DNA of 47,581 bases. Origin: Euryarchaeota archaeon UBA229 (GTDB lineage: Archaea; Thermoplasmatota; Poseidoniia; Poseidoniales; Poseidoniaceae). Location of the stretch: NCBI GenBank assembly GCA_002505355.1, contig DAUW01000076.1, forward strand, positions 970-48,550. The letters run 5' to 3'. How positions within the stretch are numbered: the first letter of the stretch is position 1; each line of letters begins with the position of its first letter. Below the pieces are notes generated by a model. It did no database searches, had not been told where the DNA came from, and saw only the letters and a program-made list of their open reading frames with translations. Positions 29,204-47,581 of this stretch are shown in pieces. Made by a program: the position numbers and the translations under genes.

Positions 29204-30352
29204 ATGGTCAACTTCAAGCTCGACGATATGCAAGAAGGTTTGAAAGAACTAGCGCATGAATTTGCCATTGATGAAATCAGACCACATGCAGAACATTGGG
29301 ACGAAAATTCTGAGTACCCTAAAGATGCGATTTCCAAAGCCCATGATTTAGGGATATTGAATTTGCATATCCCGGAACAGTATGGTGGCATGGGTCTAGG
29401 CTGCATGGAAGAGGTGCTTGTCAATGAAGAACTCGCTTGGGGAGACCCCGGATTTGCAACTGCCGCTTACGCTACTGCACTTGCATGTGCGCCGATAATT
29501 ACCGGCGCAACAGAAGAGCAAAAACAAATATGGTTGAGAAGAGTTGCTGAGGAAGGACATTTAGCATCATACGCGGTAACCGAGCCAGGTGCCGGTTCCG
29601 ATGTTGCGGCATGCAAAACAACCGCAATTTTAGATGGTGATGATTACGTCATAAACGGCGAAAAAATGTGGATAACCGGGGCAGGATATTCTGATTTTTT
29701 CTTCGTGCTAGCCAAGACCGATCCGGAAGCGGGTTACCGCGGCATGTCCGGTTTCATTGTCGAAAAAGATACTGACGGCTTTTCGTTGGGCAAAAAGGAA
29801 ACCAACATGGGTCAAAGATGTTCAGATACTCGGTCAATAGTTTTCGATAATGTTAGAGTTAGCAAAGACCACTTGATAGGTGGCAGTGAATCTGGCGGTT
29901 GGATGAATGCTATGAAAGCATTTGATGTCAGCCGACCAAACATTGCTGCGCATGCGACAGGTTTGGCTAGAGCATCATACGAACATGCCTTGCAATATTC
30001 AAATGAACGAATGACGTTTGGCAAACCACTACATCAACATCAGGCTATACAATTTATGCTAGCAGATATGAAAACTAAGATTGAAGCATCAAGAATGCTT
30101 ACTTGGAAATCAGCCAATGAATCTGATGAGGGGATCAGAAATACTGAGTCTGCGGCGCACGCAAAACGGTTTGCGGCCGACACGGCGATGGAAGTCTCGA
30201 CTGACGCAGTTCAGATTTTTGGCGGATATGGCTATTCTGAAGAATATCCAGTCGCCAGATTGATGAGAGCTGCAAAGGTGATGCAAATTTACGAGGGCTC
30301 GTCACAAGTTCAAAGGATGATTATTGGAAGAGAGATTACCAAAGATTTCTAG
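29204..30352 (+). CDS. Acyl-CoA dehydrogenase
   Basis: YAVTEPGAGSDVAA, KMWITGA, QIFGGYGYSEEYPVARLMRAAKVMQIYEGSSQVQRMIIGREI; 382 aa. Confidence 0.93.
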   Translation: MVNFKLDDMQEGLKELAHEFAIDEIRPHAEHWDENSEYPKDAISKAHDLGILNLHIPEQYGGMGLGCMEEVLVNEELAWGDPGFATAAYATALACAPIITGATEEQKQIWLRRVAEEGHLASYAVTEPGAGSDVAACKTTAILDGDDYVINGEKMWITGAGYSDFFFVLAKTDPEAGYRGMSGFIVEKDTDGFSLGKKETNMGQRCSDTRSIVFDNVRVSKDHLIGGSESGGWMNAMKAFDVSRPNIAAHATGLARASYEHALQYSNERMTFGKPLHQHQAIQFMLADMKTKIEASRMLTWKSANESDEGIRNTESAAHAKRFAADTAMEVSTDAVQIFGGYGYSEEYPVARLMRAAKVMQIYEGSSQVQRMIIGREITKDF

Positions 30353-30964
30353 TTGAAATTTCGAGGTGAGAATTTGCCAACTGGTATCCCCGCTATCGTC
30401 CTCAGTGGTGGCAGCAGCAATCGTCTCGGCCAACCAAAAGCGTTGGTTAGTATCCAAGGCAAGTCACTACTGTCACTGGCAATAAAAAAATTGCAGCATG
30501 CAGGTTGTATGCCAGTTGTCGTTGTCGTCAACAAAAATTTGCAATATGATGCCTTAATCCATTCACATGGTGCGACCATCGTAGTGAATAAAACACCACA
30601 GAACGGTCGAACCGGTAGTCTCAAGATTGGGTTAAACTCACTTATCGCCGAATTGGGTAGAGTTCCAAACCAGATTATTATGTGTCCAATAGATCGGCCA
30701 GGCTGGAAATCCAGTCATATCGGTTCATTGGTCAACTCCGGAACCTCATCATGTTTGGTAGAAGGTGGCAAAAAAGGTCACCCAGTATCGTTAGTAAAAG
30801 ATGACTTACTTAATATCTTGGGCGCACCTGATGATGCATCACTGAGGAGTCTAGTAGATTTCAGCCCGGTAGAAATAGACAATGGACTTTTGTGGCTAAA
30901 CATCGATACACCTGTCGATTTGGAAAAATTGGCCGACAATTCAAATTTCTTTGATGAACTTTGA
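30353..30964 (+). CDS. MobA/MocA-like nucleotidyltransferase (molybdenum cofactor cytidylyl/guanylyl-transferase family)
   Basis: N-terminal IVLSGGSSNRLGQPKAL (L-x-G-G-x-S-x-R-x-G-x-x-K). ~200 aa. Followed by an XdhC-like gene. TTG start directly after the ACAD stop. Confidence 0.65.
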   Translation: MKFRGENLPTGIPAIVLSGGSSNRLGQPKALVSIQGKSLLSLAIKKLQHAGCMPVVVVVNKNLQYDALIHSHGATIVVNKTPQNGRTGSLKIGLNSLIAELGRVPNQIIMCPIDRPGWKSSHIGSLVNSGTSSCLVEGGKKGHPVSLVKDDLLNILGAPDDASLRSLVDFSPVEIDNGLLWLNIDTPVDLEKLADNSNFFDEL

Positions 30965-31002: not shown

Positions 31003-31878
31003 ATGACGAAGCACACTTTATCCTGGGTGGTGAGTAAATTAGCACTTAGGCGACGGGTTGTCATGGCTAGTGTAGTTCAAGCATCAGGCAGTGTGCCCGG
31101 TAAGGTCGGTGCAAGACTAGCGGTTGCTGAGCTAACCCCCGGATTTCACGGAACAATTGGTGGCGCCGGTCTCGAGCATAAGGTGCTAAATCGCTGCAAT
31201 GAATTGCTCAATATCCACACTGAGCCATTTGGTGAGGTGTTGAATTTTGGTTTAAACAAAGGAGCGAAGGGCTATGAAGTACAACCGCTTGATTCTCTTT
31301 GTGGGGGAAGAGTTACAGTGTCCATAGAAGTAATAATTCCCCCACCGCATATCTTGATGATGGGTGGAGGCCACTGTGCTAATGCATTATCGGCTGCTAT
31401 ACAGTCGCTCAATTGGAATTATTCTATTACCGATTCAAGACTTGAATTCTGTAATAACGACCTCTTTCCCACGGCTTCGGAATTAATTCATTGCTCTGTG
31501 GAGGACCACCTCAACAAAGAATCCTATGAATCAGTTAATCGCTTTTCTGATATCCTATTGCTTGGACACGATTGGTCGGAAGATCAGTACAGACTGCTAG
31601 GCCTGCTTGAACTATGTCAAAGTAACAACGCCAGACCGAATGGGAAGACATTTCCCAGGATCGGCGTTATTGGCAGTAGAAGTAAATGGCAGTCATTTTG
31701 CCAAGCTGCCGTTCAGCAGGGCATCAACCAAGAATTACTCGATGACGTGATTTGTCCGATCGGGTTGAACATCGGAGCAGAATCTCCGGAAGAAATCGCA
31801 GTCGCCGTAACTGCGCAAATACTTGCCTTTGCTAAAGGTGTGTCCCCAGGTCAGAAAAATTGGCGGGAATCACTGTGA
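31003..31878 (+). CDS. XdhC/CoxI-family molybdoenzyme maturation factor
   Basis: The N-terminal XdhC_CoxI-like segment is VVMASVVQASGSVPGKVGARLAV. A central Rossmann-like segment is ILMMGGGHCANALSAAI. The 3' end overlaps the convergent orn gene by 9 nt. Confidence 0.72.
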   Translation: MTKHTLSWVVSKLALRRRVVMASVVQASGSVPGKVGARLAVAELTPGFHGTIGGAGLEHKVLNRCNELLNIHTEPFGEVLNFGLNKGAKGYEVQPLDSLCGGRVTVSIEVIIPPPHILMMGGGHCANALSAAIQSLNWNYSITDSRLEFCNNDLFPTASELIHCSVEDHLNKESYESVNRFSDILLLGHDWSEDQYRLLGLLELCQSNNARPNGKTFPRIGVIGSRSKWQSFCQAAVQQGINQELLDDVICPIGLNIGAESPEEIAVAVTAQILAFAKGVSPGQKNWRESL

Positions 31879-38745: not shown

Positions 38746-39348
38746 GTGGTTGGTTCCGAGTATGTTAAGATGACCCCCTCTGCCCCCAAAACGATATGGA
38801 GCGCAACGGTAAACAAAAAATCGTTCGAATTACTGATTAATTCCAATGCGGTGCTTCTGGATGTCCTCCGCGACCAGGTTGGAACCCTCGGAGTCAAACG
38901 AGGTTGCGACTTGGGCACTTGTGGATGCTGCACAGTCATGGTCGATGGAGAGCCAAGACTTTCTTGCTTATGCCTAGCGGGTCAGGTCTCAGACACGGCA
39001 ATAACCACTGTTGAAGGGCTTGCTAACGGGGCACACTTAGCACCAATCCAGGCTTGTTTTGCTAAGTATGGCGGGTCACAGTGTGGATTTTGCACCCCAG
39101 GTTTCCTTGTTGCATCACAAGCTTTACTTGATGACAATCCTTCACCTACCGACCAAGAAATCGCTGATGCTATTGAGGGCAATCTGTGCCGCTGTACAGG
39201 ATATCAGCAAATTATTGAATCAATTCAGGAAGCAGCTAAGATTCATCGTGGCGAAGTTGCACACCCGCAACCAGCCTCCGATCCTCACCCAGACCCACAT
39301 CCGGATGGTCCCGGGGAACCATCTATGCCGCCCGGTCATGCGAAGTGA
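38746..39348 (+). CDS. [2Fe-2S]-binding small subunit of a xanthine dehydrogenase/aldehyde oxidase/CODH-family molybdoenzyme
   Basis: The plant-type cluster motif is GCDLGTCGCCTVMVDGEPRLSC. The second cluster motif is QCGFCTPGFLV...NLCRCTGYQQI. It has an unusual His/Pro/Asp-rich C-terminal tail (HPQPASDPHPDPHPDGPGEPSMPPGHAK). Start is GTG at 38746 (GGTGA upstream) or ATG at 38770. Confidence 0.9.
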   Translation: MVGSEYVKMTPSAPKTIWSATVNKKSFELLINSNAVLLDVLRDQVGTLGVKRGCDLGTCGCCTVMVDGEPRLSCLCLAGQVSDTAITTVEGLANGAHLAPIQACFAKYGGSQCGFCTPGFLVASQALLDDNPSPTDQEIADAIEGNLCRCTGYQQIIESIQEAAKIHRGEVAHPQPASDPHPDPHPDGPGEPSMPPGHAK

Positions 39349-42155
39349 TTACTATGTCAGCAGGATATCGACAACAACCAGGTAATCGTTCGTCTAAGCG
39401 TACAGATGGCAAAAGAGTGGCTGGAAAACAGGTTTTCCCACCTCCTGGTTCCGGCGGTTCGAGGCCGGTCATGAAGGAAAGAGATTTAGATTTCATACCA
39501 GAGTCAGTCGGCGGCAAAGAGCCACAGCCTGCGGGATCTCACATACATGACAGAATAAGAACTGGTACTGTGGTCGGTAAGTCCCTGTCGTTAGTAGATT
39601 CAAATGCTAAGGTTACTGGACAAGCATGGTATGGCGATGATGTAAGGTTGCCGAACGAAACAATTGGTAAGATTTTACGTTCACCCCATCATTATGCCAA
39701 AATAAAATCAATTGACACCTCAAGAGTCGAAGCATTACCTGGTGTAATATCGGTGGCAACAGGTCAAGATGCTGCCAATAGTTTTGGCGTATTACCGGTC
39801 ACCAAAGATGAGCATGCAATGGCGGTCGAAAAAGTCAGACACATGGGTGACTTGGTCGCATGTGTGTGTGCGGAAACAGAAGCAATTGCTATTGAAGCAC
39901 TCTCCCTATTTGACATCGAATGGGAGGTTCTCGAGCCCGTATTTGATCGTAAAATGGGCTTAGAGGACGTAGACGAGCCGATTCACTGGCGAGGTAAATA
40001 CCACTTGTCGAGAACCAATGTCCAAAAGCGAGTTTTCCAAGAATTCGGCGATCGTTCACTTGTTGACAATCCACACGCAGCGTCCCACGGCAAATGGAGT
40101 ATGGAGGGGGTTCACCACGGCTTTACGGAGCCTCACGCAGTGGTGGCTCACTGGGATCCAAATGGTAGGTTACAACTGTACACTCCTCAGCAAGTTCCGC
40201 ACTACACTCACAGAGCATTGTCTACTGTTTTGGATGTGCCAATGCACCAAATTAACGTGATTAGAACCTTTGTTGGTGGGGGTTTTGGCGGAAAGTCGGA
40301 TCCGTTCCCGCACGAGATGTGTGCAGCTATATTGTCAAGAAAATCCGGCAGGCCAGTTAGAATAACCTTTGATCGTGAGGAGGTTTATTGGATAAATCGC
40401 GGACGTCACCCCAGTGATATCGAAGTGAAGATGACTGCTGATGATGTCGGCCGAATCTCTGGTTTTGATATTGATGCGCTCATTGACGGCGGTGGTTTTG
40501 CATCGTTCGGGCACGTCACATCTTACTACAATGGTGTTTTAGCGACTGCACCATATGAATTGGGTTCGTTTCATTACACTGGAGCAAGAGTATGGACCAA
40601 TAAACCAGCCTCGGGCGCAATGCGAGGTCATGGTGCTGTTAACACTAGATGTGCGGTTGAGGTAGGACTCGACGAAATGGCAGAACAGATGGCCGTTGAC
40701 CCGATAGATCTCAGATTAGCAAATCTCCTGCCTCCCCATAGCAGGACAATAACCGGATTTAGAATTACCTCAAACGGGATGCGTGAGGCTCTTGAAGAGG
40801 TAAGGGATGGGTCAAAGTGGGATGAAAAATTCCGACAACTTCCGTTAGGTAAAGGAATAGGCGTTGGGTGTGGATTTTTCATTTCTGGCTCGGGCTTGCC
40901 TATTCATTGGGACCCAAATCGTTTCCCTCACGCAACAGTTCACATTCAGGTAGATATGGATGGTGGAGTTACTGTTCACACTGGTGCAGCAGATATCGGA
41001 CAAGGTTCTACAACTGCGGTCGCGCAAGTAGTTGCCGAGGTATTGGCATTGCCGATTGAAATGATTCACGTTAGGAGTCATGAGAGTGATACGGCTCCGG
41101 TTGATTTAGGCTCATACTCCAGCAGAGTTACTTTCATGAACGCCAATGCAGCAATACGGGCCGCTTTGGAGATTAGAGAGCAAATTCTCAATGCTGCTTG
41201 GGACATACTCGGATATCATCCCAATACCTTGGTACTAAATGACAGAAGAATATACTACAAGCACGATCCATCAATTGGTGTATCATATCTGAAAGCGTTA
41301 CACAAAGCGCAAGAGGACAAGGGCTCATTAATTGCCAGTGGCGCATATCGATCACCGCCTATGGGAGGGGTCCACAAAGGGGCAGCTGCGGGCCTCGCAC
41401 CAGCGTACTCCTTCTCTGCCTACGTTGCTGAAGTCGATGTAGACGTTGAGTTAGGTTTGGTTAAATGTACCAATGTCTGGGCGGCACATGACTGTGGTAA
41501 AGCACTAAATCCATTGGCTGTCAAAGGCCAGATAATCGGTTCATGTCACATGGGATTGGGTCAAGTATTATCTGAGAAAATGGTTTATGGAAGAACGGGA
41601 CATCTGCAGAATGCCAACCTGTTAGAATACAAAATTCCGTCCGTCCATGAGATGCCACACGTTGTTCCAATTATCATAGAATCATGCGATCCAGAGGGGC
41701 CATTCGGCGCAAAAGAAGCCGGCGAAGGTCCGCTATTGCCAATATTACCAGCCGTTGTCAACGCAGTGTATGATGCCGTTGGAGTTAGATTTAGGGACTT
41801 GCCACTGACTCCTGATATAGTCTACAAAGGCATCGAACGTAAGCGAAAGTCGTTGAAACTAGATGATTGTCTAGAATTGCCTAATCCGAGATTAGAGCAC
41901 GGACCTATGCAAGAGGTTTTGGTTGCAAGAGCTAATGAACACAAAACACGCGACAAAGCCAGACAGCGAACCGAGGACACCTCTCACTACGTAAACGGCG
42001 TGCTGTTTGGTTTTGATCCGAACATACCTTTGGAAGACCAGGTTGATGGTTGGCGAATGGCTACTGAGCCAGACCCAGAACAACTTGCTGAATTGGGTCT
42101 TGCTGGTAAGGCTTGGCTTAAGAAAACGCAGCGTGAAATGGGGCGTGATGATTGA
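39345..42155 (+). CDS. Molybdopterin-binding large subunit of a xanthine dehydrogenase-family enzyme (not a form-I CO dehydrogenase)
   Basis: VGKSLSLVDSNAKVTGQAWYGDD N-terminal domain, GGGFGGKS, SGAMRGHG, and C-terminal GAKEAGEGPL with the catalytic-Glu context. It lacks a VAYRCSFR-type CODH loop. Extra ~75-aa N-terminal (if GTG 39345) and ~100-aa C-terminal extensions. Confidence 0.88.
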   Translation: MITMSAGYRQQPGNRSSKRTDGKRVAGKQVFPPPGSGGSRPVMKERDLDFIPESVGGKEPQPAGSHIHDRIRTGTVVGKSLSLVDSNAKVTGQAWYGDDVRLPNETIGKILRSPHHYAKIKSIDTSRVEALPGVISVATGQDAANSFGVLPVTKDEHAMAVEKVRHMGDLVACVCAETEAIAIEALSLFDIEWEVLEPVFDRKMGLEDVDEPIHWRGKYHLSRTNVQKRVFQEFGDRSLVDNPHAASHGKWSMEGVHHGFTEPHAVVAHWDPNGRLQLYTPQQVPHYTHRALSTVLDVPMHQINVIRTFVGGGFGGKSDPFPHEMCAAILSRKSGRPVRITFDREEVYWINRGRHPSDIEVKMTADDVGRISGFDIDALIDGGGFASFGHVTSYYNGVLATAPYELGSFHYTGARVWTNKPASGAMRGHGAVNTRCAVEVGLDEMAEQMAVDPIDLRLANLLPPHSRTITGFRITSNGMREALEEVRDGSKWDEKFRQLPLGKGIGVGCGFFISGSGLPIHWDPNRFPHATVHIQVDMDGGVTVHTGAADIGQGSTTAVAQVVAEVLALPIEMIHVRSHESDTAPVDLGSYSSRVTFMNANAAIRAALEIREQILNAAWDILGYHPNTLVLNDRRIYYKHDPSIGVSYLKALHKAQEDKGSLIASGAYRSPPMGGVHKGAAAGLAPAYSFSAYVAEVDVDVELGLVKCTNVWAAHDCGKALNPLAVKGQIIGSCHMGLGQVLSEKMVYGRTGHLQNANLLEYKIPSVHEMPHVVPIIIESCDPEGPFGAKEAGEGPLLPILPAVVNAVYDAVGVRFRDLPLTPDIVYKGIERKRKSLKLDDCLELPNPRLEHGPMQEVLVARANEHKTRDKARQRTEDTSHYVNGVLFGFDPNIPLEDQVDGWRMATEPDPEQLAELGLAGKAWLKKTQREMGRDD

Positions 42156-43129
42156 TGTTGATGCCCCCATTCACCCTACACCATCCCAATACCGTCGATG
42201 AGGCCGTTGGGATTGCCTCTCAACTACTTGAGCAACAAGAAGATTTTGATTGGGTTGCAGGTGGAACGGATGTTGTTCCTAATTACAAATGGCGAATAAA
42301 CCCTAAGCCTCACGTTATCTCATTAGCTAATATTCCGGAAGCAAATCAAATATCGCAATATGAGATCGGCTGTATGACCAAACTTTCCCAACTAACAACA
42401 GAAAACAAAGTTCACCCATTAATAGTTGAAGCAGCCTCTAAAATTGCCTCGTCCCTAGTTAGAAAAAGTGCCACAGTAGGTGGCAATCTTTGTCTTGACA
42501 CACGATGTTTCTGGTATAACCAGAGTGAGGACTGGCGTCGTTCGATTGATTGGTGCCACAAAGCAGACTGTGGAACTGGTGCTGACTGTAGAGTCATCCC
42601 AAACCAAAATACCCTGTGTGTTGCTACATATCAAGGAGATTTGGCACCTAATTTTATGGCTCTTGGGGCCAAAGTTTCGCTCATCGGTCCCGATGGTGAG
42701 AGAACCATACTTTTGGAAGATTTTTATCAATTGGATGGTATGAAAAAGAATGTACTACAGCCCGGAGAGTTCATGCTCAAAGTGAGCCTCCCAGCAGATG
42801 CCTTCGAGTATGATGGAAGCTACCAAAAGTTACGGCTACGAGAATCGTGGGATTTTCCTGAGGCTGGTATCTCTGCGGTATGGAAAAAAGGCGACTATTC
42901 GACGCTAAAAATAGCCTCTACAGCATTAGAATCAATCCCTAAAACTCATGATTCCCAAGTTGGAGAGTTCGCTTCATCATGGCAAAATGGAACCACTATT
43001 TCTCAACTATCAGATGCTATTCGCAAGTCTGTTAAGCCAGTAAATAACACAGCCTTACCGCCCAATTACCGTAAATCTGTAGTAAGAATACTAACCAAGA
43101 GGGCGCTAAAAAATATCGGATGTGAGTGA
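42152..43129 (+). CDS. FAD-binding medium subunit of the molybdoenzyme, with a ~45-aa Cys-rich insertion
   Basis: VAGGTDVVPNYK and SATVGGNLC ... GDLAPNFMALGA are FAD-domain blocks. Between them lies LDTRCFWYNQSEDWRRSIDWCHKADCGTGADCRVIPNQNTLC. The start overlaps the large-subunit stop. Confidence 0.85.
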   Translation: MMLMPPFTLHHPNTVDEAVGIASQLLEQQEDFDWVAGGTDVVPNYKWRINPKPHVISLANIPEANQISQYEIGCMTKLSQLTTENKVHPLIVEAASKIASSLVRKSATVGGNLCLDTRCFWYNQSEDWRRSIDWCHKADCGTGADCRVIPNQNTLCVATYQGDLAPNFMALGAKVSLIGPDGERTILLEDFYQLDGMKKNVLQPGEFMLKVSLPADAFEYDGSYQKLRLRESWDFPEAGISAVWKKGDYSTLKIASTALESIPKTHDSQVGEFASSWQNGTTISQLSDAIRKSVKPVNNTALPPNYRKSVVRILTKRALKNIGCE

Positions 43130-44089
43130 GTGGCAAATTCAACAAAAGGTGTTGTAACTCTAGTATTGTGTTGCCTCCTCTTTGGCGCTTTTTTGCCTGG
43201 TGTGGCTGCACAAGACCAAGTTGAGATTCCGTCGTGGGAGGTTGGCTGGGAGACCAACATGGATGGTATTTACGAACTAGAATTATCAGGTCAAGACGAC
43301 ATCGATGATTCTATTGAGTTCTTTGTTGCCAACGAAAGAATGATCGATTTAAATCTTGAGATAACCATTGAATGGGATGAATCAGATAACATACCGATTG
43401 AACTAGAATATGATGAATCGATAAGCGTCGCAGCATCAGATAATCAGACATTTACTATAGAAATCTCAGACTTATCGGGTTATTCCTTCCTGAGGTCTCC
43501 TACCAAATCCATGACGTTATTGCTCAGCGCTCAAGAGGTTGCCCTTGAACAACCACTGTCAACGCAAGAAATTGACGCTGAACTGGTAGTCCCAGCGGTC
43601 TTCAACCTCAAACTTGAATCCCAATCTAAGGACGAAATTCTCTACTCAGGTTCATCGGTAGAATATTTGCTAAAAGTGTCCAATGAAGGTAATACGAAAG
43701 ACGTGATTAAGTCTCCTCAGGCGTCAATTAAGTCATGCCCCAGTATTAATGTTGAAGGACTGGATGTCATGGCTGACGTGGAACTAGAGAACTCAACAGT
43801 AGGTGAGTATGTAGTTAGGATTTCAGCCTCTGCTTCTCAACCAGAGAGAATCTGTGAAATCACTATCTCGATAAAATCGGCTGGTAATGGCCAAATCTCA
43901 AGCACAATTTTCGAAATAGATGTGAATTCAAACGCCGGGAATGACGATGAGCGTACGGTGAGTGATAATGACGAACCAACTAACAACGGAGAAACGGAAC
44001 TAACTGAAACAGATACTCTAGATTTTATTGGAATATTCGAGCTTATTTTCATCGTCGCTATCGCAGTGTCATTTCGTCGTCTAAATTAA
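43130..44089 (+). CDS. Secreted acidic protein with a C-terminal TM anchor; function unknown
   Basis: The GTG start is the nucleotide right after the medium-subunit stop. Signal peptide VVTLVLCCLLFGAFLPGVAAQD. Body is acidic and beta-rich by eye. The C-terminus is FIGIFELIFIVAIAVSFRRLN. Confidence 0.55.
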   Translation: MANSTKGVVTLVLCCLLFGAFLPGVAAQDQVEIPSWEVGWETNMDGIYELELSGQDDIDDSIEFFVANERMIDLNLEITIEWDESDNIPIELEYDESISVAASDNQTFTIEISDLSGYSFLRSPTKSMTLLLSAQEVALEQPLSTQEIDAELVVPAVFNLKLESQSKDEILYSGSSVEYLLKVSNEGNTKDVIKSPQASIKSCPSINVEGLDVMADVELENSTVGEYVVRISASASQPERICEITISIKSAGNGQISSTIFEIDVNSNAGNDDERTVSDNDEPTNNGETELTETDTLDFIGIFELIFIVAIAVSFRRLN

Positions 44090-44167
44090 TGTTAGAAAAC
44101 GGGCTGTTGCGCCCGATTAAAGGACATTATTTACTGGCTAAAACTCAAGCCCAAGACGTATAAATCA

Positions 44168-45853
44168 TTGTATAAGGTTGCTCACCAATCAGCAAGCATT
44201 ATGAGTGGAAAGAATTTCGAGGTAGTAGTAGTGTGCCATGCATTGCGCAAAAGAGTGAATATTATGGCAGAAGAGGAGAAGAAAAAAATTAGTCTTGAGA
44301 CATGGCTCAAGGTTGGTTTTATGGCTTCACTTTTCATTTCAGTATTGCTAATCGGGTTGGTAAGTTTCGACAAAGAAACCGTATTTTCTCCATATGAGCA
44401 AGATCCAGAATACTACAATATACAATTAACTGAAATGCGAGCAAATCTTGGAGATGATGGAACTGGTTATACTGTGGCCAATACAATGTCAACTCCAATG
44501 TTAGTGAACGATTGGCGAGATCCTCATCGAACCTTGCTTGTCATAGCAGCTCCCGAGAAACCATTTGATGCTGCCGAGGCCGCGGCAATACATGATTTCG
44601 TAACTAAGAAAGGCGGAAAAGTAGTGCTTGCCTCAAATTCTACCAATGCCCAACTGGTGGCAAGTGAGTTTGGTGTCAAGTATTTCGACGCCCCAGTAGT
44701 TGACCCTTTCCAGTTTTACGAAGTAGCCGATGAGACCGGTGATGCATTAAACCCAGATGAAAGAAAACTTTGGGCCGCCGCTAGCCTTACTCGTGATGTT
44801 ACGCAAATGGGCGATGAAAAACACGTACCCTGTTCAAGTAACAATCTAGCCAACGCTCAAGTAAGCGACTGCCGCATGCCGGTATTATTTCACCGAGCAA
44901 CGGCAATCCAAGTGCTGGACGAAGAAGTAGACGACAACAGAGACGTAATGGTTCTTGCGCACGCCTCAACCCCAGCATTCATCGCTAGACAGGACACCAA
45001 CATCGACAATCTCAATAATCCAACCCTAGGAGAGGGTAAAACCGGTTTGATAATTCGGATGGATTATCCAGGAATCGAGGTGCTGGATGAGCAACCGAAC
45101 AATAATTTTGGCGAGGTTGATGTAACAGGTTCGATAGTTTTCGTTTCCGACCACTCCGTATTAGCTAACCATTTGTGGAACCAAACAATTGCTGAGGAAA
45201 CCGGTAAACAACAATGCAAATCGCCATTTTATGTCTCTAATGCGCTGGGCAATTCACATGCTTGCTGGGATAGTGCCTTATTTTCCTCCGATGGTGCAGA
45301 GGTAGTTTGGAATGGCAATGGTCCTTATTTCCAAGCATTGTTTTACGATATGATGGAATTTGATAACGAAGAAATAACCACAAAAGTGACCAGAGATCCG
45401 TCAGAGTTCAACCTTGTCTTTGATGAGAGCCGACACGTTTCAAGCGCTCTCTCATCACCATTTACCGAGGCTATAGGCGCCGTTGTCTTACTAACTAGCG
45501 ACAATGTCTTGAAGTGGTTGATTATTCTAAATTTATTTGCGCTGTTAGCGATTGCTATCATGGTTGTGCCAGAAAAAGAGAATTGGCGCCATGTGTTTGA
45601 TTTGACAAGATTTAGGGAGCGACCGACCAAGATAGACTCCTCTCAATATCAAATGCGAGTTAGAGAAGCGTTTTTGTCTAAAGTTAGGCAGTTCAATGAC
45701 CTAACTCGCGATGAATTCGCCCGCAAGACACCTGCGGAAATCATGTATATGGTAAAAGACCCGCGATTGGTTGAACTGATTAGTTCAAACCGTTCCTACT
45801 CCAACGAAGAATTACGGGAAGTGATTCCCCAAATACGTCGTTGGGGTAAATGA
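44168..45853 (+). CDS. Two-TM-anchored extracytoplasmic protein preceding MoxR/DUF58 (positionally like DUF4350-type genes); function unknown
   Basis: The track start is TTG at 44168. The ATG at 44264 (MAEEEKKKISLETWLKVGFMASLFISVLLIGLV...) is more plausible. A second TM helix lies near the C-terminus (LIILNLFALLAIAIMVV), followed by a basic cytoplasmic tail. Confidence 0.5.
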   Translation: MYKVAHQSASIMSGKNFEVVVVCHALRKRVNIMAEEEKKKISLETWLKVGFMASLFISVLLIGLVSFDKETVFSPYEQDPEYYNIQLTEMRANLGDDGTGYTVANTMSTPMLVNDWRDPHRTLLVIAAPEKPFDAAEAAAIHDFVTKKGGKVVLASNSTNAQLVASEFGVKYFDAPVVDPFQFYEVADETGDALNPDERKLWAAASLTRDVTQMGDEKHVPCSSNNLANAQVSDCRMPVLFHRATAIQVLDEEVDDNRDVMVLAHASTPAFIARQDTNIDNLNNPTLGEGKTGLIIRMDYPGIEVLDEQPNNNFGEVDVTGSIVFVSDHSVLANHLWNQTIAEETGKQQCKSPFYVSNALGNSHACWDSALFSSDGAEVVWNGNGPYFQALFYDMMEFDNEEITTKVTRDPSEFNLVFDESRHVSSALSSPFTEAIGAVVLLTSDNVLKWLIILNLFALLAIAIMVVPEKENWRHVFDLTRFRERPTKIDSSQYQMRVREAFLSKVRQFNDLTRDEFARKTPAEIMYMVKDPRLVELISSNRSYSNEELREVIPQIRRWGK

Positions 45854-45856
45854 AAT

Positions 45857-45862
45857 AGGAGG
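45857..45862 (+). promoter_or_regulatory. Shine-Dalgarno site for the MoxR gene
   Basis: AGGAGG lies 8 nt upstream of the ATG at 45871. Confidence 0.6.
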
Positions 45863-45870
45863 AAAAAGAC

Positions 45871-46074
45871 ATGCAACCAGCCCCCCCACCCCAGCCTGCG
45901 CCAGCGCAGCCAGGGATGCCAGCAGCACCTGCACCAGCAGCGCCTATGCCAGCAGCGCCTATGCCAGCACCACCAATGCAAGCAGCACCAGCGCCAGCGG
46001 CACCAAGACCCGCAGCTCCAGCAGCACCTGCCCCGGCAGCCCCAGTAGCGCCAGCCGCTCCGGCCAAGCCGAAG
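45871..46074 (+). repeat. GC-rich coding low-complexity region (Pro/Ala repeats, including a direct CCAGCAGCGCCTATG x2 repeat)
   Basis: The run of GCN/CCN codons visibly contrasts with the AT-leaning surroundings. It generates long spurious antisense ORFs (45780..46067, 45796..46176). Confidence 0.85.
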
Positions 46075-47046
46075 CACCAGAGTACCCCAGAAGTTCGTGA
46101 GAGACTTTCTGCAGTAGGAGCTATCGCTCAAGCGATTAGCGCTGAAGTTCAGAAAGTAATTATCGGTAAAGCACACATTATCGATAACGTTCTCATCAAC
46201 ATTCTTTCCAACGGAAATCTTCTGTTCGAAGACTATCCTGGATTGGCGAAGACATTGATGACCAACACTTTCGCTGACGCTCTTGGTTGTGATTTCAAGC
46301 GTGTTCAGTTTACGCCCGATTTACTACCAGCGGACATCACAGGAACCAACGTATATGATGCCAAGAAGGGTGAATTTACGTTTAAACCCGGACCGCTGTT
46401 CTGTAATCTACTACTAGCGGACGAAATTAACCGTGCTCCGCCAAAGACTCAGGCTGCTCTGCTTGAGGCTATGCAGGAAAAGCAGGTTACAATCGGTACA
46501 GTGACTCACAAATTACCTGCTCCGTTTATCGTTATGGCAACTCAAAACCCTGTCGAACAAGAAGGTACCTATCCACTTCCTGAAGCACAGCTTGACAGAT
46601 TCATGTTCAAGATGTCCGTAGGCTATCCTGATAGAGCCGATGAAGATGAGATACTTGCCCGACGTATTACTCGCGGAAAAGACGCAGTAGATGTCGATGT
46701 TATTACCGACCCGCAACGTGTTATCGCAATGCAGCAAGCCTGTGAAGATGTTTATGTCGACCCTGCACTAAGAATGTACATGGTTGAGATTGTGGCAAGA
46801 ACTAGAGAGGATCCTAGAGTTCTCGTTGGTTCCTCACCTCGTGGTTCGCAAGCGTTGTTGAAGACATCAAGAGCCGCAGCTGCCCTTCGAGGTAGGGATT
46901 TCGTTACTCCTGATGATATCAAAGCAATTGCTGAATTAGCTATCGCCCACAGGATTATTCTGAAGCCAGAACATCAAATTAAGGGACTTGAAGCAGGAGA
47001 AGTAATTCAAACAATCCTGCGCGAAGTTCCAGTGCCAACAGTCTGA
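45871..47046 (+). CDS. MoxR-family AAA+ ATPase with a ~70-aa Pro/Ala-rich N-terminal extension
   Basis: Walker A context EDYPGLAKT, Walker B/MoxR block LLLADEINRAPPKTQAALLEAMQEKQVT, then VMATQNPVEQEGTYPLPEAQLDRF and SPRGSQALL. The N-terminus is MQPAPPPQPAPAQPGMPAAPAPAAPMPAAPMPAPP.... Confidence 0.9.
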   Translation: MQPAPPPQPAPAQPGMPAAPAPAAPMPAAPMPAPPMQAAPAPAAPRPAAPAAPAPAAPVAPAAPAKPKHQSTPEVRERLSAVGAIAQAISAEVQKVIIGKAHIIDNVLINILSNGNLLFEDYPGLAKTLMTNTFADALGCDFKRVQFTPDLLPADITGTNVYDAKKGEFTFKPGPLFCNLLLADEINRAPPKTQAALLEAMQEKQVTIGTVTHKLPAPFIVMATQNPVEQEGTYPLPEAQLDRFMFKMSVGYPDRADEDEILARRITRGKDAVDVDVITDPQRVIAMQQACEDVYVDPALRMYMVEIVARTREDPRVLVGSSPRGSQALLKTSRAAAALRGRDFVTPDDIKAIAELAIAHRIILKPEHQIKGLEAGEVIQTILREVPVPTV

Positions 47047-47068
47047 TCTATTGTAACAGGTGTTTACT

Positions 47069-47581
47069 ATGTGGAGCCGCAAATCAGCAATGTTGGGTAG
47101 TTTAGCCATAGCAATGTATCTGCTTGGCTTGACGCTTCGAAATGAACAACTAGTAACCATTGCAGTTGTGATTTTCGTGTTCCTAACATGGGCCGCCTTA
47201 TTTGGCGGTCATGCCGATGTTGCTTCATCAGGAAGGCGGGCCGATGAATGGTCTGGAGAGGAAGGTATTGCCCTTGGCAGCGTAATCGCAATGCGAAAAT
47301 TATCCAGTGCCAGGTTATTTGAAGATGGAGAATTGAATGTCACACTGCGTATGCAGAATAACTCACCCCTGCCAAAAATTCTCGAGGTTAGAGATCGCGT
47401 GCCGGAAGTTATGAGAATCAAAGAAGGGTCAAACTACATTCTTATGGAATTAGGTCCGAGAAGAGAGACATTCATCGAATATACCATTGAATGTCCCCTT
47501 AGGGGATTTTACAGTATTGGCCCGGTCGCAGTACGGATCCAAGATCCATTTGGGCTATTTCACAAGGAAAAAGAAATGCAT
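47069..47581 (+). CDS. DUF58-family protein, 5' portion (truncated by the window end)
   Basis: My translation from the ATG at 47069 is open to the window end. It has two N-terminal hydrophobic helices (MLGSLAIAMYLLGL; LVTIAVVIFVFLTWAALF). It then reads ...ECPLRGFYSIGPVAVRIQDPFGLFHKE, which matches the DUF58 R-G-x-Y-x-x-G-P...D-P-F-G-L-F signature. Directly downstream of MoxR. Confidence 0.75.
   Translation, partial: MWSRKSAMLGSLAIAMYLLGLTLRNEQLVTIAVVIFVFLTWAALFGGHADVASSGRRADEWSGEEGIALGSVIAMRKLSSARLFEDGELNVTLRMQNNSPLPKILEVRDRVPEVMRIKEGSNYILMELGPRRETFIEYTIECPLRGFYSIGPVAVRIQDPFGLFHKEKEMH

Follow-up and report, generated by a model that had tools for sequence, protein, structure and literature searches.

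A predicted HcrB-type [4Fe-4S] loop in the FAD subunit of an Hcr-like molybdoenzyme of Poseidoniales

The window examined here, the whole stretch of 47,581 nt that was analysed, encodes a three-subunit molybdoenzyme whose FAD subunit contains a Cys-rich insertion. From its sequence, this insertion is very probably an HcrB-type loop that binds a [4Fe-4S] cluster through Cys119, Cys135, Cys146 and Cys156. On balance, and with some reserve, we favor reading the system as a whole as a member of a sister subfamily of Hcr that carries this cluster loop and works as a ferredoxin-linked aroyl-CoA dehydroxylase, feeding an oxygen-dependent, Box-like route. [quoted passage not shown]

The Cys-rich insertion of the FAD subunit

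The FAD (medium) subunit (42152–43129, + strand; Pfam FAD_binding_5) has 325 aa when read from TTG 42152 or 324 aa from ATG 42155; the second start is likelier, because it overlaps the stop codon of the large subunit as TGATG and yields the same length, 324 aa, as identical database proteins. The initial annotation described a 45-aa, Cys-rich insertion with six Cys residues between the GGN(L/I) and (D)LAP blocks. It lies at 42491–42634 (+ strand; residues 114–161), with codons for C114 at 42491–93, C119 at 42506–08, C135 at 42554–56, C140 at 42569–71, C146 at 42587–89 and C156 at 42617–19. Six of the eight Cys of the subunit fall inside 43 residues, a clustering with a chance of about 1e-5 according to our own arithmetic, which assumes ~1% Cys per residue. 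When compared with the loop-less CutM (1ffu_C), the alignment stops at residue 114 of the query (CutM 117) and restarts at residue 169 (CutM 130), so that the query has ~42 extra residues, net, between its GGNL and DLAP blocks.

HcrB (1rm6_B) aligned with the FAD subunit in a single full-length stretch (query 3–319 to HcrB 3–317, E 2e-38), in which C119, C135, C146 and C156 from the query correspond to HcrB C122, C138, C146 and C155. The insertion is thus collinear with the HcrB [4Fe-4S] loop and conserves its four ligand Cys, as had been proposed; the HcrB positions 122/138/146/155 and the 16-residue spacing between C119 and C135, as given in the initial annotation, were also correct. The two other Cys are not equally conserved: C114, an extra Cys that is not a predicted ligand, aligns to HcrB C117 and is kept in 72 of 127 relatives, while C140, also an extra Cys, lies inside a lineage-specific insert of three residues that is common to only 2 of the 126 other relatives. 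Conversely, the four predicted ligands were invariant in all 127 full-length FAD-subunit sequences compared (the query plus 126 representatives of clusters at 50% identity, 30–56% identical to the query), as well as in all 41 rows of alignment A1, in which the FAD motif AGGTD was likewise invariant. Additionally, the motif GGN-x-C-x15-C-x7-11-C-x8-10-C was found in 75 of the 76 FAD-subunit ORFs from the fetched loci, the exception being a loop-less second paralogue. Neither a shift in the position of the insertion, nor fewer than four conserved Cys, nor a phylogenetic placement among aerobic, loop-less enzymes appeared in our alignments and trees.

An AlphaFold2 model of the FAD subunit reached a pLDDT of 92, and its top match in a Foldseek comparison was 1rm6_B, with a TM of 0.91, whereas all the other chains were at or below 0.81. 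The loop itself was modeled with a lower pLDDT than the rest (77–81), as could occur if its cysteines were structural, forming disulfides or a Zn site, and held no Fe-S cluster. We consider this extremely unlikely, because the residues coincide exactly in position with those that bind the cluster in the crystal structure of HcrB, and none of the four varies among 127 divergent sequences; moreover, disulfides are improbable in a cytoplasmic protein such as this.

Taken alone, the loop of the MGII (Marine Group II) enzyme is an ordinary HcrB loop of a type already known. Since an equivalent four-Cys loop also occurs in oxidative aldehyde oxidoreductases, it indicates an extra electron-transfer station and says nothing about the direction of electron flow.

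Family placement of the three subunits

The FAD subunit is preceded by genes for a small subunit (38746–39348, + strand; 200 aa; Pfam Fer2_2 and Fer2), with two [2Fe-2S] motifs and a C-terminal tail rich in His, Pro and Asp, and for a large molybdopterin subunit (39345–42155, + strand; 936 aa; Pfam Ald_Xan_dh_C, MoCoBD_1 and MoCoBD_2). The large subunit has extensions of ~75 aa at its N-terminal end and ~100 aa at its C-terminal end, which are conserved in Poseidoniales and absent from HcrA. [quoted passage not shown] The small-large-medium order, already noted in the initial annotation, is conserved over the entire loop-bearing clade and is the order that we take to be that of hcrCAB from Thauera.

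Among proteins of solved structure, the best relatives of the small, large and FAD subunits were HcrC (1rm6_C, 162 bits), HcrA (1rm6_A, 563 bits, with the runner-up at 257) and HcrB (1rm6_B, 135 bits), respectively. Likewise, their best NCBIfam models were TIGR03193, TIGR03194 and TIGR03195, although the scores were below the equivalog level in the three cases: 176 bits against a cut-off of 258 for the small subunit, 745 against 995 for the large subunit and 222 against 405 for the FAD subunit. None of the 121 Poseidoniales genomes sampled exceeded the cut-off of TIGR03195. In the FAD-subunit tree, HcrB from Thauera grouped in a starred clade of seven rows and the MGII sequences in a separate starred clade of 29 rows, and HcrA from Thauera was likewise outside the clade holding the MGII enzyme in the large-subunit tree; both trees were quick builds, with SH-aLRT support only. 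[quoted passage not shown]

The suggested kinship to 4-HBCR therefore holds in that Hcr is the best relative of all the subunits, and fails in that a true 4-HBCR would score above the cut-offs and would not occupy a separate clade. Relatives are annotated by JGI as 4-hydroxybenzoyl-CoA reductase subunit beta and, together with the best matches of the three subunits to Hcr models and structures, this could suggest a genuine orthologue acting in the classical anaerobic benzoyl-CoA pathway. However, besides the failure to reach any of the three equivalog cut-offs and the different clade, we found neither a BcrB/C-type (HGD-D) protein nor a benzoate-type CoA ligase, and the host is aerobic, making a genuine orthologue most improbable.

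Identity as a xanthine or purine dehydrogenase also appears very unlikely. MGII genes were labeled xdhC, yagS and putative xanthine dehydrogenase in a transcriptomic study (Damashek et al., 2021; PMC9723583), and the NCBIfam XdhA models were the second-best family, with 499 bits against a cut-off of 780. However, the large subunits of solved xanthine dehydrogenases (XDH) reached at most 153 bits, vs. 563 for HcrA, XDH FAD subunits lack the loop, and the relatives of the enzyme neighbor genes for CoA-thioester metabolism instead of purine genes. Furthermore, the motif GGGFGGKS of the MGII large subunit places a Ser after GGGFGGK, in the position of the purine-binding Glu. In purine hydroxylases the substrate-binding Glu at that position is, we assume, equivalent to bovine Glu802. 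As for aerobic CO dehydrogenase (CODH), its models scored 270–296 bits against cut-offs of 950–991, the genes follow the small-large-medium and not the coxMSL order, and the large subunit reads PASGAMRGHGAV (PASGAMRGHG) at the position of the CODH active-site loop, and not AYRCSFR or AYRGAGR. The loop sequence, the far lower XDH scores and the Ser after GGGFGGK agree with the early view that the enzyme is unlikely to oxidize CO or xanthine.

Distribution, gene neighborhood and a possible Box-like route

TIGR03195 matched 120 of 121 Poseidoniales genomes, once in each of them, and the Hcr-like enzyme belongs to the single-copy core of the order. Its large subunit is the sole XO-family large subunit in the genome of the window. 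The host also contains a heme-copper oxidase, indicating that it respires oxygen.

Genes for cofactor maturation and for CoA-thioester metabolism accompany the enzyme in the window and in other loci. An XdhC-family Moco insertion chaperone (31003–31878, + strand; Pfam XdhC_CoxI and XdhC_C) is encoded in the window, and genes of this family adjoin the operon in 19 loci from Poseidoniales and in three others. It is preceded by a gene for a MobA/MocA-like nucleotidyltransferase (30353–30964, + strand; Pfam NTP_transf_3), likely a molybdopterin cytidylyltransferase for MCD, which directly adjoins the Hcr-like operon in two loci from Thalassarchaeaceae (L036 and L051). Rinke et al. (PMC6461757) noted that synthesis of the molybdenum cofactor is universal in Poseidoniales, and their passage on this subject names nitrate reductase alone as a molybdenum enzyme, as a general example. 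About 7 kb upstream of the operon there is a gene for an acyl-CoA dehydrogenase (29204–30352, + strand; Pfam Acyl-CoA_dh_N/M/1), which did not reach any specific NCBIfam equivalog; the same protein cluster occurs beside Hcr-like genes in KSB1 (L072), in L065 and in Chloroflexota (L091). In KSB1 and L065 the gene order is ALDH, crotonase, thiolase, acyl-CoA dehydrogenase, small, large and FAD subunits, and 3-hydroxyacyl-CoA dehydrogenase, whereas in Acidobacteria it is TetR, crotonase, ALDH, BoxB-like, crotonase, rhodanese, small, large and FAD subunits, and amidohydrolase_2. The MoxR/DUF58 genes downstream of the operon in the window were considered as CoxD/CoxE-like maturases, which was unsupported: the module resembles generic MoxR-DUF58 cassettes, and the two genes that intervene before it encode extracytoplasmic or membrane proteins. 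A search of a plasmid collection retrieved only PaoB-like subunits of ~27% identity and was uninformative.

A shortened BoxB-like diiron protein was found in 119 of 121 Poseidoniales genomes. It keeps all six diiron ligands of BoxB from Azoarcus, although it is far below the BoxB cut-off (~165–222 vs. 499 bits), and genuine BoxA and BoxC were absent from the genomes searched. In a genome of MGIIb (G027) its gene is clustered with those for three crotonases and an ALDH. From these sequence features, the BoxB-like protein is a candidate benzoyl-CoA consumer, core to Poseidoniales. Among 134 genomes of Thermoplasmatota other than Poseidoniales, 14 carried the Hcr-like gene and 20 a strong BoxB-like gene; nine carried both, against about two expected by chance, although these genomes are related and not independent. 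In 11 of those 20 genomes the BoxB-like gene was not accompanied by an Hcr-like gene, whereas the Hcr-like gene lacked any BoxB-type match in three genomes only, two of them incomplete. Such an asymmetry, with the first situation common and the reverse rare, is the pattern expected for a peripheral feeder enzyme. The two genes were not adjacent in any of the archaeal loci examined, and their link comes from bacterial operons and from co-occurrence. It is unlikely that the Hcr-like enzyme is the missing BoxA-type reductase, because of those 11 genomes containing the BoxB-like gene alone; that the BoxB-like gene has its own flavoprotein neighbor also counts against it. The idea of a shared regulator was also discarded, since the HTH_10 proteins encoded upstream of the Hcr-like operon in MGIIb and upstream of the BoxB-like gene resemble each other in the DNA-binding domain alone (35% over 62 aa).

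We also looked for enzymes that could activate an aromatic acid or supply electrons. No benzoate-CoA ligase scored above its cut-off in the profile search; near-complete MGII genomes have one AMP-forming ligase each, of the long-chain fatty-acid type, and a family III CoA-transferase is limited to the genus of the window. ADP-forming acyl-CoA synthetases were rejected as activators, because the sole PF13607 matches look like the alpha subunit of succinyl-CoA synthetase. Of the two gene types proposed for search in the initial annotation, the aromatic-acid CoA ligase was therefore not recovered, whereas ferredoxin genes were present in relatives, as small ORFs with two [4Fe-4S] motifs. A 2-oxoacid:ferredoxin oxidoreductase is present in the genome of the window.

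In the mechanism that we propose for the Hcr-like enzyme, the loop cluster would be the outermost of five redox stations in the chain [4Fe-4S]–FAD–2x[2Fe-2S]–Mo-MCD. An extra [4Fe-4S] station implies that electrons are exchanged one at a time with a ferredoxin-type carrier, rather than at the flavin with NAD(P) or O2. Electrons would come from ferredoxin reduced by the 2-oxoacid:ferredoxin oxidoreductase of the archaeon, and the enzyme might remove the para-hydroxyl from an aroyl-CoA, e.g., 4-hydroxybenzoyl-CoA. The product might then pass to the short BoxB-like diiron epoxidase, which has crotonases and an aldehyde dehydrogenase as partners, amounting to an oxygen-dependent CoA-thioester route for phenolic acids. 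We regard it as rather probable that the substrate is an (aro)acyl-CoA; that the enzyme works reductively and feeds the BoxB-like route is a more tentative proposal, to which we give somewhat less than an even chance.

An oxidative function is the main alternative, and we judge it considerably less probable than not. The enzyme would then be a hydroxylase or dehydrogenase whose Mo site adds a water-derived OH to a (hetero)aroyl-CoA, an aldehyde or an N-heterocycle, and electrons would leave via FAD and the loop, as in PaoABC-type enzymes, for a one-electron acceptor such as ferredoxin. The aldehyde oxidoreductases 5y6q_B and 5g5g_B, which are among the top fold matches, have an equivalent loop with four Cys in the alignment. 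The reductive direction in the initial suggestion of a reductive or ferredoxin-linked member therefore does not follow from the loop, while its view that CO and xanthine are unlikely substrates is supported. Additionally, the host is aerobic, the enzyme lies outside the Hcr clade of Thauera, and the crotonase and acyl-CoA dehydrogenase neighbors would suit an oxidative aroyl-CoA hydroxylase equally well; for such an enzyme with such neighbors, we assume 2-furoyl-CoA dehydrogenase to be the type for comparison. Nevertheless, all three subunits are far nearer to Hcr than to PaoABC or the Methylobacillus enzyme (for the large subunit, 563 bits vs. 202 and 166; for the FAD subunit, 135 vs. 58 and 66), and the presence and absence of the Hcr-like gene relative to the BoxB-like gene fits a pathway feeder.

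If the enzyme did dehydroxylate an aroyl-CoA for the BoxB-like oxygenase, phenolic acids would be among the compounds consumed by the uncultured MGII archaea. The broadest version of this proposal is doubtful: that the archaea most abundant in the plankton of the surface ocean perform an "anaerobic-type", ferredoxin-driven reductive dehydroxylation in oxic water, passing phenolic acyl-CoA to a short BoxB epoxidase in the absence of BoxA and BoxC. Phenolic acyl-CoA could derive from, e.g., phytoplankton 4-hydroxybenzoate, tyrosine or phenylpropanoids, and the archaea would represent a sink of aromatic carbon in the sea that has gone unrecognized. Aerobes would also be using a type of enzyme that is considered strictly anaerobic, fed with ferredoxin by archaeal 2-oxoacid oxidoreductases, and there would be a reason for Poseidoniales to keep a full molybdenum-cofactor pathway. 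The 4-HBCR from Thauera is reported to be oxygen-sensitive (PMC12771579), in contrast with the aerobic life of the host. Our literature searches found no paper joining 4-hydroxybenzoyl-CoA reductase with Marine Group II or with furoyl-CoA dehydrogenase.

Comparison with known systems

The closest known system is HcrCAB from Thauera aromatica (1RM6/1SB3; HbaBCD in Rhodopseudomonas palustris), which shares with the MGII enzyme the three subunits, the small-large-medium order and a beta subunit with a loop of ~40 aa and four equivalently placed Cys. However, the FAD subunits are only ~28% identical in the Foldseek alignment, and the MGII enzyme differs in the extra N- and C-terminal segments of the large subunit, the extra tail of the small subunit and the 3-aa insert with an additional Cys in the loop. 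The motifs close to Mo are also different, with GGGFGGKS and PASGAMRGHG in MGII vs. GGGFGART and PPCGAMRGHG in Hcr, and the MGII host is aerobic, with neither benzoyl-CoA reductase nor a CoA ligase of the benzoate type.

The FAD subunits of PaoABC (5G5G) and of the aldehyde oxidase from Methylobacillus (5Y6Q) align with that of MGII through the loop, which in both enzymes presumably holds a [4Fe-4S] cluster; in 5y6q_B, the four Cys are at, or no more than two residues from, the ligand Cys of the query. Unlike the function proposed for the MGII enzyme, these two are oxidative aldehyde oxidoreductases, and they are more distant than Hcr (58–66 bits for the FAD subunit and 166–202 for the large subunit). 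The urolithin C dehydroxylase of Enterocloster (Ucdh/UcdCFO), which contains MCD and needs XdhC, is the second reductive dehydroxylase known in the XO family (PMC12771579, PMC11760930); unlike the MGII enzyme, it has no [4Fe-4S] loop in the FAD subunit. It depends on NADH and acts on a substrate other than a CoA ester, whereas ferredoxin and an aroyl-CoA are proposed for MGII. Finally, CoxMSL and the xanthine dehydrogenases resemble the MGII enzyme in overall fold and in their wire of Mo, 2x[2Fe-2S] and FAD, but have no loop in the FAD subunit (an alignment gap at query 115–168); CoxMSL also has another gene order, and the MGII enzyme has neither the active-site loop of CODH nor the purine-binding Glu.

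The Cys-rich loop of the FAD subunit

The genes for the small (two [2Fe-2S] clusters; 38,746–39,348), molybdopterin large (936 aa; 39,345–42,155) and FAD (325 aa; 42,152–43,129) subunits of the molybdoenzyme overlap one another on the plus strand, and all three ORFs contain the expected Pfam domains. For the FAD subunit, the ATG at 42,155, within the TGATG overlap with the large-subunit stop codon, is the more likely start; the resulting 324 aa product has the same length as identical database proteins. The stretch 42,491–42,634 corresponds to residues 114–161 of this subunit; the codons for C114, C119, C135, C140, C146 and C156 were verified base by base, and six of the eight cysteines of the protein lie within 43 residues.

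[quoted passage not shown] Counting along this alignment, C119, C135, C146 and C156 fall on HcrB C122, C138, C146 and C155, so that the HcrB positions and the 16-residue spacing given in the initial annotation are correct; C114 falls on HcrB C117, and C140 lies inside a 3-residue insert. The alignment to the loop-less CutM stops at query residue 114 (CutM 117) and restarts at 169 (CutM 130), which, together with the checked codons, confirms a Cys-rich insertion, with a net length of ca. 42 residues. An exhaustive HMMER search across 1.84 billion cluster representatives yielded 243 relatives (E ≤ 1e-30). The four putative ligand cysteines were invariant in the 126 full-length sequences within the top 150 of these (30–56% identity to the query) and in the query itself (127/127), whereas C114 was retained in 72 of the 127 and C140 in only two relatives besides the query. 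An AlphaFold2 model (41-sequence alignment; pLDDT 92, with 77–81 in the loop) superposes on 1rm6_B with a TM-score of 0.91, and on all other chains with 0.81 or less. The FAD motif AGGTD is invariant. Collinearity, Cys invariance and the model strongly support the insertion being an HcrB-type loop, as initially proposed, and a predicted [4Fe-4S] site.

Affiliation and distribution of the enzyme

Hcr is the best solved relative for all three subunits, with 563 bits for the large subunit, versus 257 for the next match, and 162 bits for the small subunit. Likewise, the best NCBIfam models are those for the Hcr small, large and FAD subunits (TIGR03193, TIGR03194 and TIGR03195), although the scores of 176, 745 and 222 bits fall short of the respective equivalog cut-offs of 258, 995 and 405 bits. 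In the subunit trees, which come from quick searches and carry only SH-aLRT support values, the Poseidoniales (Marine Group II, MGII) sequences form a fully supported clade within a starred group that includes sequences from Thermoplasmata, Planctomycetota and KSB1. Thauera HcrB and its close relatives group in a separate starred clade, and Thauera HcrA forms a long branch external to the group with the MGII sequences. The enzyme is therefore outside 4-HBCR proper by both sequence threshold and phylogeny, and these comparisons place it in an uncharacterised subfamily of the loop-bearing Hcr-like superclade.

The initial annotation had also argued against a CO or xanthine oxidiser, and this holds. 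A CO dehydrogenase is ruled out by the sequence PASGAMRGHG at the loop position and by the small–large–medium gene order; a xanthine dehydrogenase is unlikely, since chains of that enzyme score 153 bits or less and the GGGFGGKS motif carries Ser at the presumed position of the purine hydroxylase Glu. Damashek et al. labelled these MGII genes as putative xanthine dehydrogenase (PMC9723583), and our literature search found no paper joining MGII with 4-HBCR. In the passages of Rinke et al. (PMC6461757) consulted, Moco biosynthesis is core to Poseidoniales and the only Mo enzyme named, as a general example, is nitrate reductase.

TIGR03195 matched a single copy in 120 of the 121 Poseidoniales genomes sampled, covering all 21 genera, never above the cut-off. 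Close homologues come from marine metagenomes and are labelled Poseidonia, Poseidoniales or Thermoplasmatota. In two loci under bacterial MAGs, L016 (NZEQ01000021.1, "Verrucomicrobiales bacterium ARS100") and L032 (CAXRAI010000016.1, "Salinimicrobium sp."), the MGII operon occurs at 62–71% identity with its full synteny (S8 protease, small, large, FAD, secreted protein, DUF4350); these are probably mis-binned archaeal contigs. [quoted passage not shown] The genes for XdhC and a MocA-like nucleotidyltransferase, 7 kb upstream of the operon here, directly adjoin it in Thalassarchaeaceae.

The large subunit has N-terminal (ca. 75 aa, GYRQQPG...GSGG; 39,345–39,570) and C-terminal (ca. 100 aa; 41,845–42,155) extensions, both kept in the two Poseidoniales families and missing from HcrA of Thauera as well as from most bacterial relatives. 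At the end of the small subunit is a tail rich in His, Pro and Asp (39,240–39,348).

Gene neighbourhoods and a BoxB-like oxygenase

ORFs were called and clustered in 80 loci fetched with the FAD-subunit profile. In Poseidoniales, the operon is followed by genes for a secreted acidic anchored protein, starting one base past the FAD-subunit stop, a DUF4350 membrane protein, a MoxR ATPase and a DUF58 protein (43,130–47,581), an order kept in 37–49 of 50 loci from both families. These genes say little about the substrate; by analogy with the CO dehydrogenase maturases CoxD and CoxE, the module might serve the molybdoenzyme.

Outside Poseidoniales, the neighbours of Hcr-like operons are enzymes of CoA thioesters. 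The order in Acidobacteria is TetR, crotonase, aldehyde dehydrogenase, BoxB-like protein (391 aa), crotonase, rhodanese, small, large, FAD and amidohydrolase_2; in KSB1 and a related bacterium it is aldehyde dehydrogenase, crotonase, thiolase, acyl-CoA dehydrogenase, small, large, FAD and 3-hydroxyacyl-CoA dehydrogenase. The gene at 29,204–30,352 in the window belongs to the same acyl-CoA dehydrogenase cluster as in the latter loci. Four Acidobacteriota loci (L080, L083, L089 and L092) have a rhodanese-domain gene (ca. 120 aa) directly 5′ of the small-subunit gene, whose product may supply the sulfur of the Mo=S ligand, and an amidohydrolase_2 gene (decarboxylase/hydrolase family) after the FAD subunit. 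A Chloroflexota locus (L091, JAUWLF010000007.1) contains two medium–small–large XO-family operons flanking two acyl-CoA dehydrogenase genes; one FAD subunit has the four-Cys loop and the other (291 aa) lacks it.

The acidobacterial BoxB-like protein has a homologue, truncated by the end of a contig, in the genome containing the window (G000:C124:10010-10521; L004 1426–1935), and occurs in 119 of 121 Poseidoniales genomes. There it is a shortened BoxB of ca. 390 aa, scoring about 165–222 bits against a cut-off of 499, in which each of the six residues that ligate the diiron centre of Azoarcus BoxB (E120, E150, H153, D211, E240 and H243) is conserved. In MGII the genes next to it encode an HTH_10 regulator, a conserved protein of ca. 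180 aa and an EamA-type transporter (relatives in L005–L010 and L095), and in the MGIIb genome G027 three crotonases, an aldehyde dehydrogenase and a flavoprotein. Hcr-like and BoxB-like genes were adjacent in none of the archaeal loci examined. Among 134 non-Poseidoniales Thermoplasmatota genomes, 14 had an Hcr-like enzyme, 20 a strong BoxB-like protein and nine both, with about two expected by chance; this is a pattern rather than a statistic, because these genomes are related to one another and a single family supplies the majority of joint cases. BoxB-like occurred without Hcr-like in 11 genomes, while Hcr-like was accompanied by only a weak BoxB/PaaA-like match in two and by no BoxB-type match in three (two of them incomplete), an asymmetry expected from an enzyme that feeds a BoxB-centred pathway from the periphery.

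Substrate supply and direction of electron flow

Several gene searches, like the lack of adjacency noted above, speak against a straightforward 4-HBCR pathway. Searches for an HGD-D (BcrB/C) protein and for true BoxA or BoxC found none. The initial annotation had suggested looking for an aromatic-acid CoA ligase elsewhere in the genome; none was found, and the AMP-forming ligase of near-complete MGII genomes is of the long-chain fatty-acid type. Four of five near-complete Poseidoniales genomes (G003, G012, G023, G027 and G056) have such a single AMP-forming acyl-CoA ligase (600–655 aa), and G027 has a second, weaker AMP-binding match (113 bits, 563-aa ORF). A family III CoA-transferase is restricted to the genus of the window and is missing from two MGIIb genomes; no ADP-forming acyl-CoA synthetase was evident. 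Aroyl-CoA might arise from amino-acid catabolism or from the beta-oxidation of acids with a phenyl substituent.

The loop implies a one-electron partner at the flavin end and does not by itself settle the direction, since oxidative enzymes also align through this region: in the aldehyde oxidoreductase of Methylobacillus (5y6q_B), four Cys coincide with those of the query or lie no more than two residues away, and Escherichia coli PaoB (5g5g_B) aligns at the level of the loop region. The genome encodes a heme-copper oxidase and a 2-oxoacid:ferredoxin oxidoreductase; an archaeon making reduced ferredoxin aerobically with enzymes of the latter type could drive the reductive direction. The reductive, ferredoxin-linked function initially proposed is plausible but unproven. 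The Thauera 4-HBCR uses reduced ferredoxin as donor and is oxygen-sensitive (PMC12771579); its [4Fe-4S]-binding loop is a peculiarity of HcrB, and UcdC, the other known reductive member of the family, lacks a loop of this type (PMC11760930).
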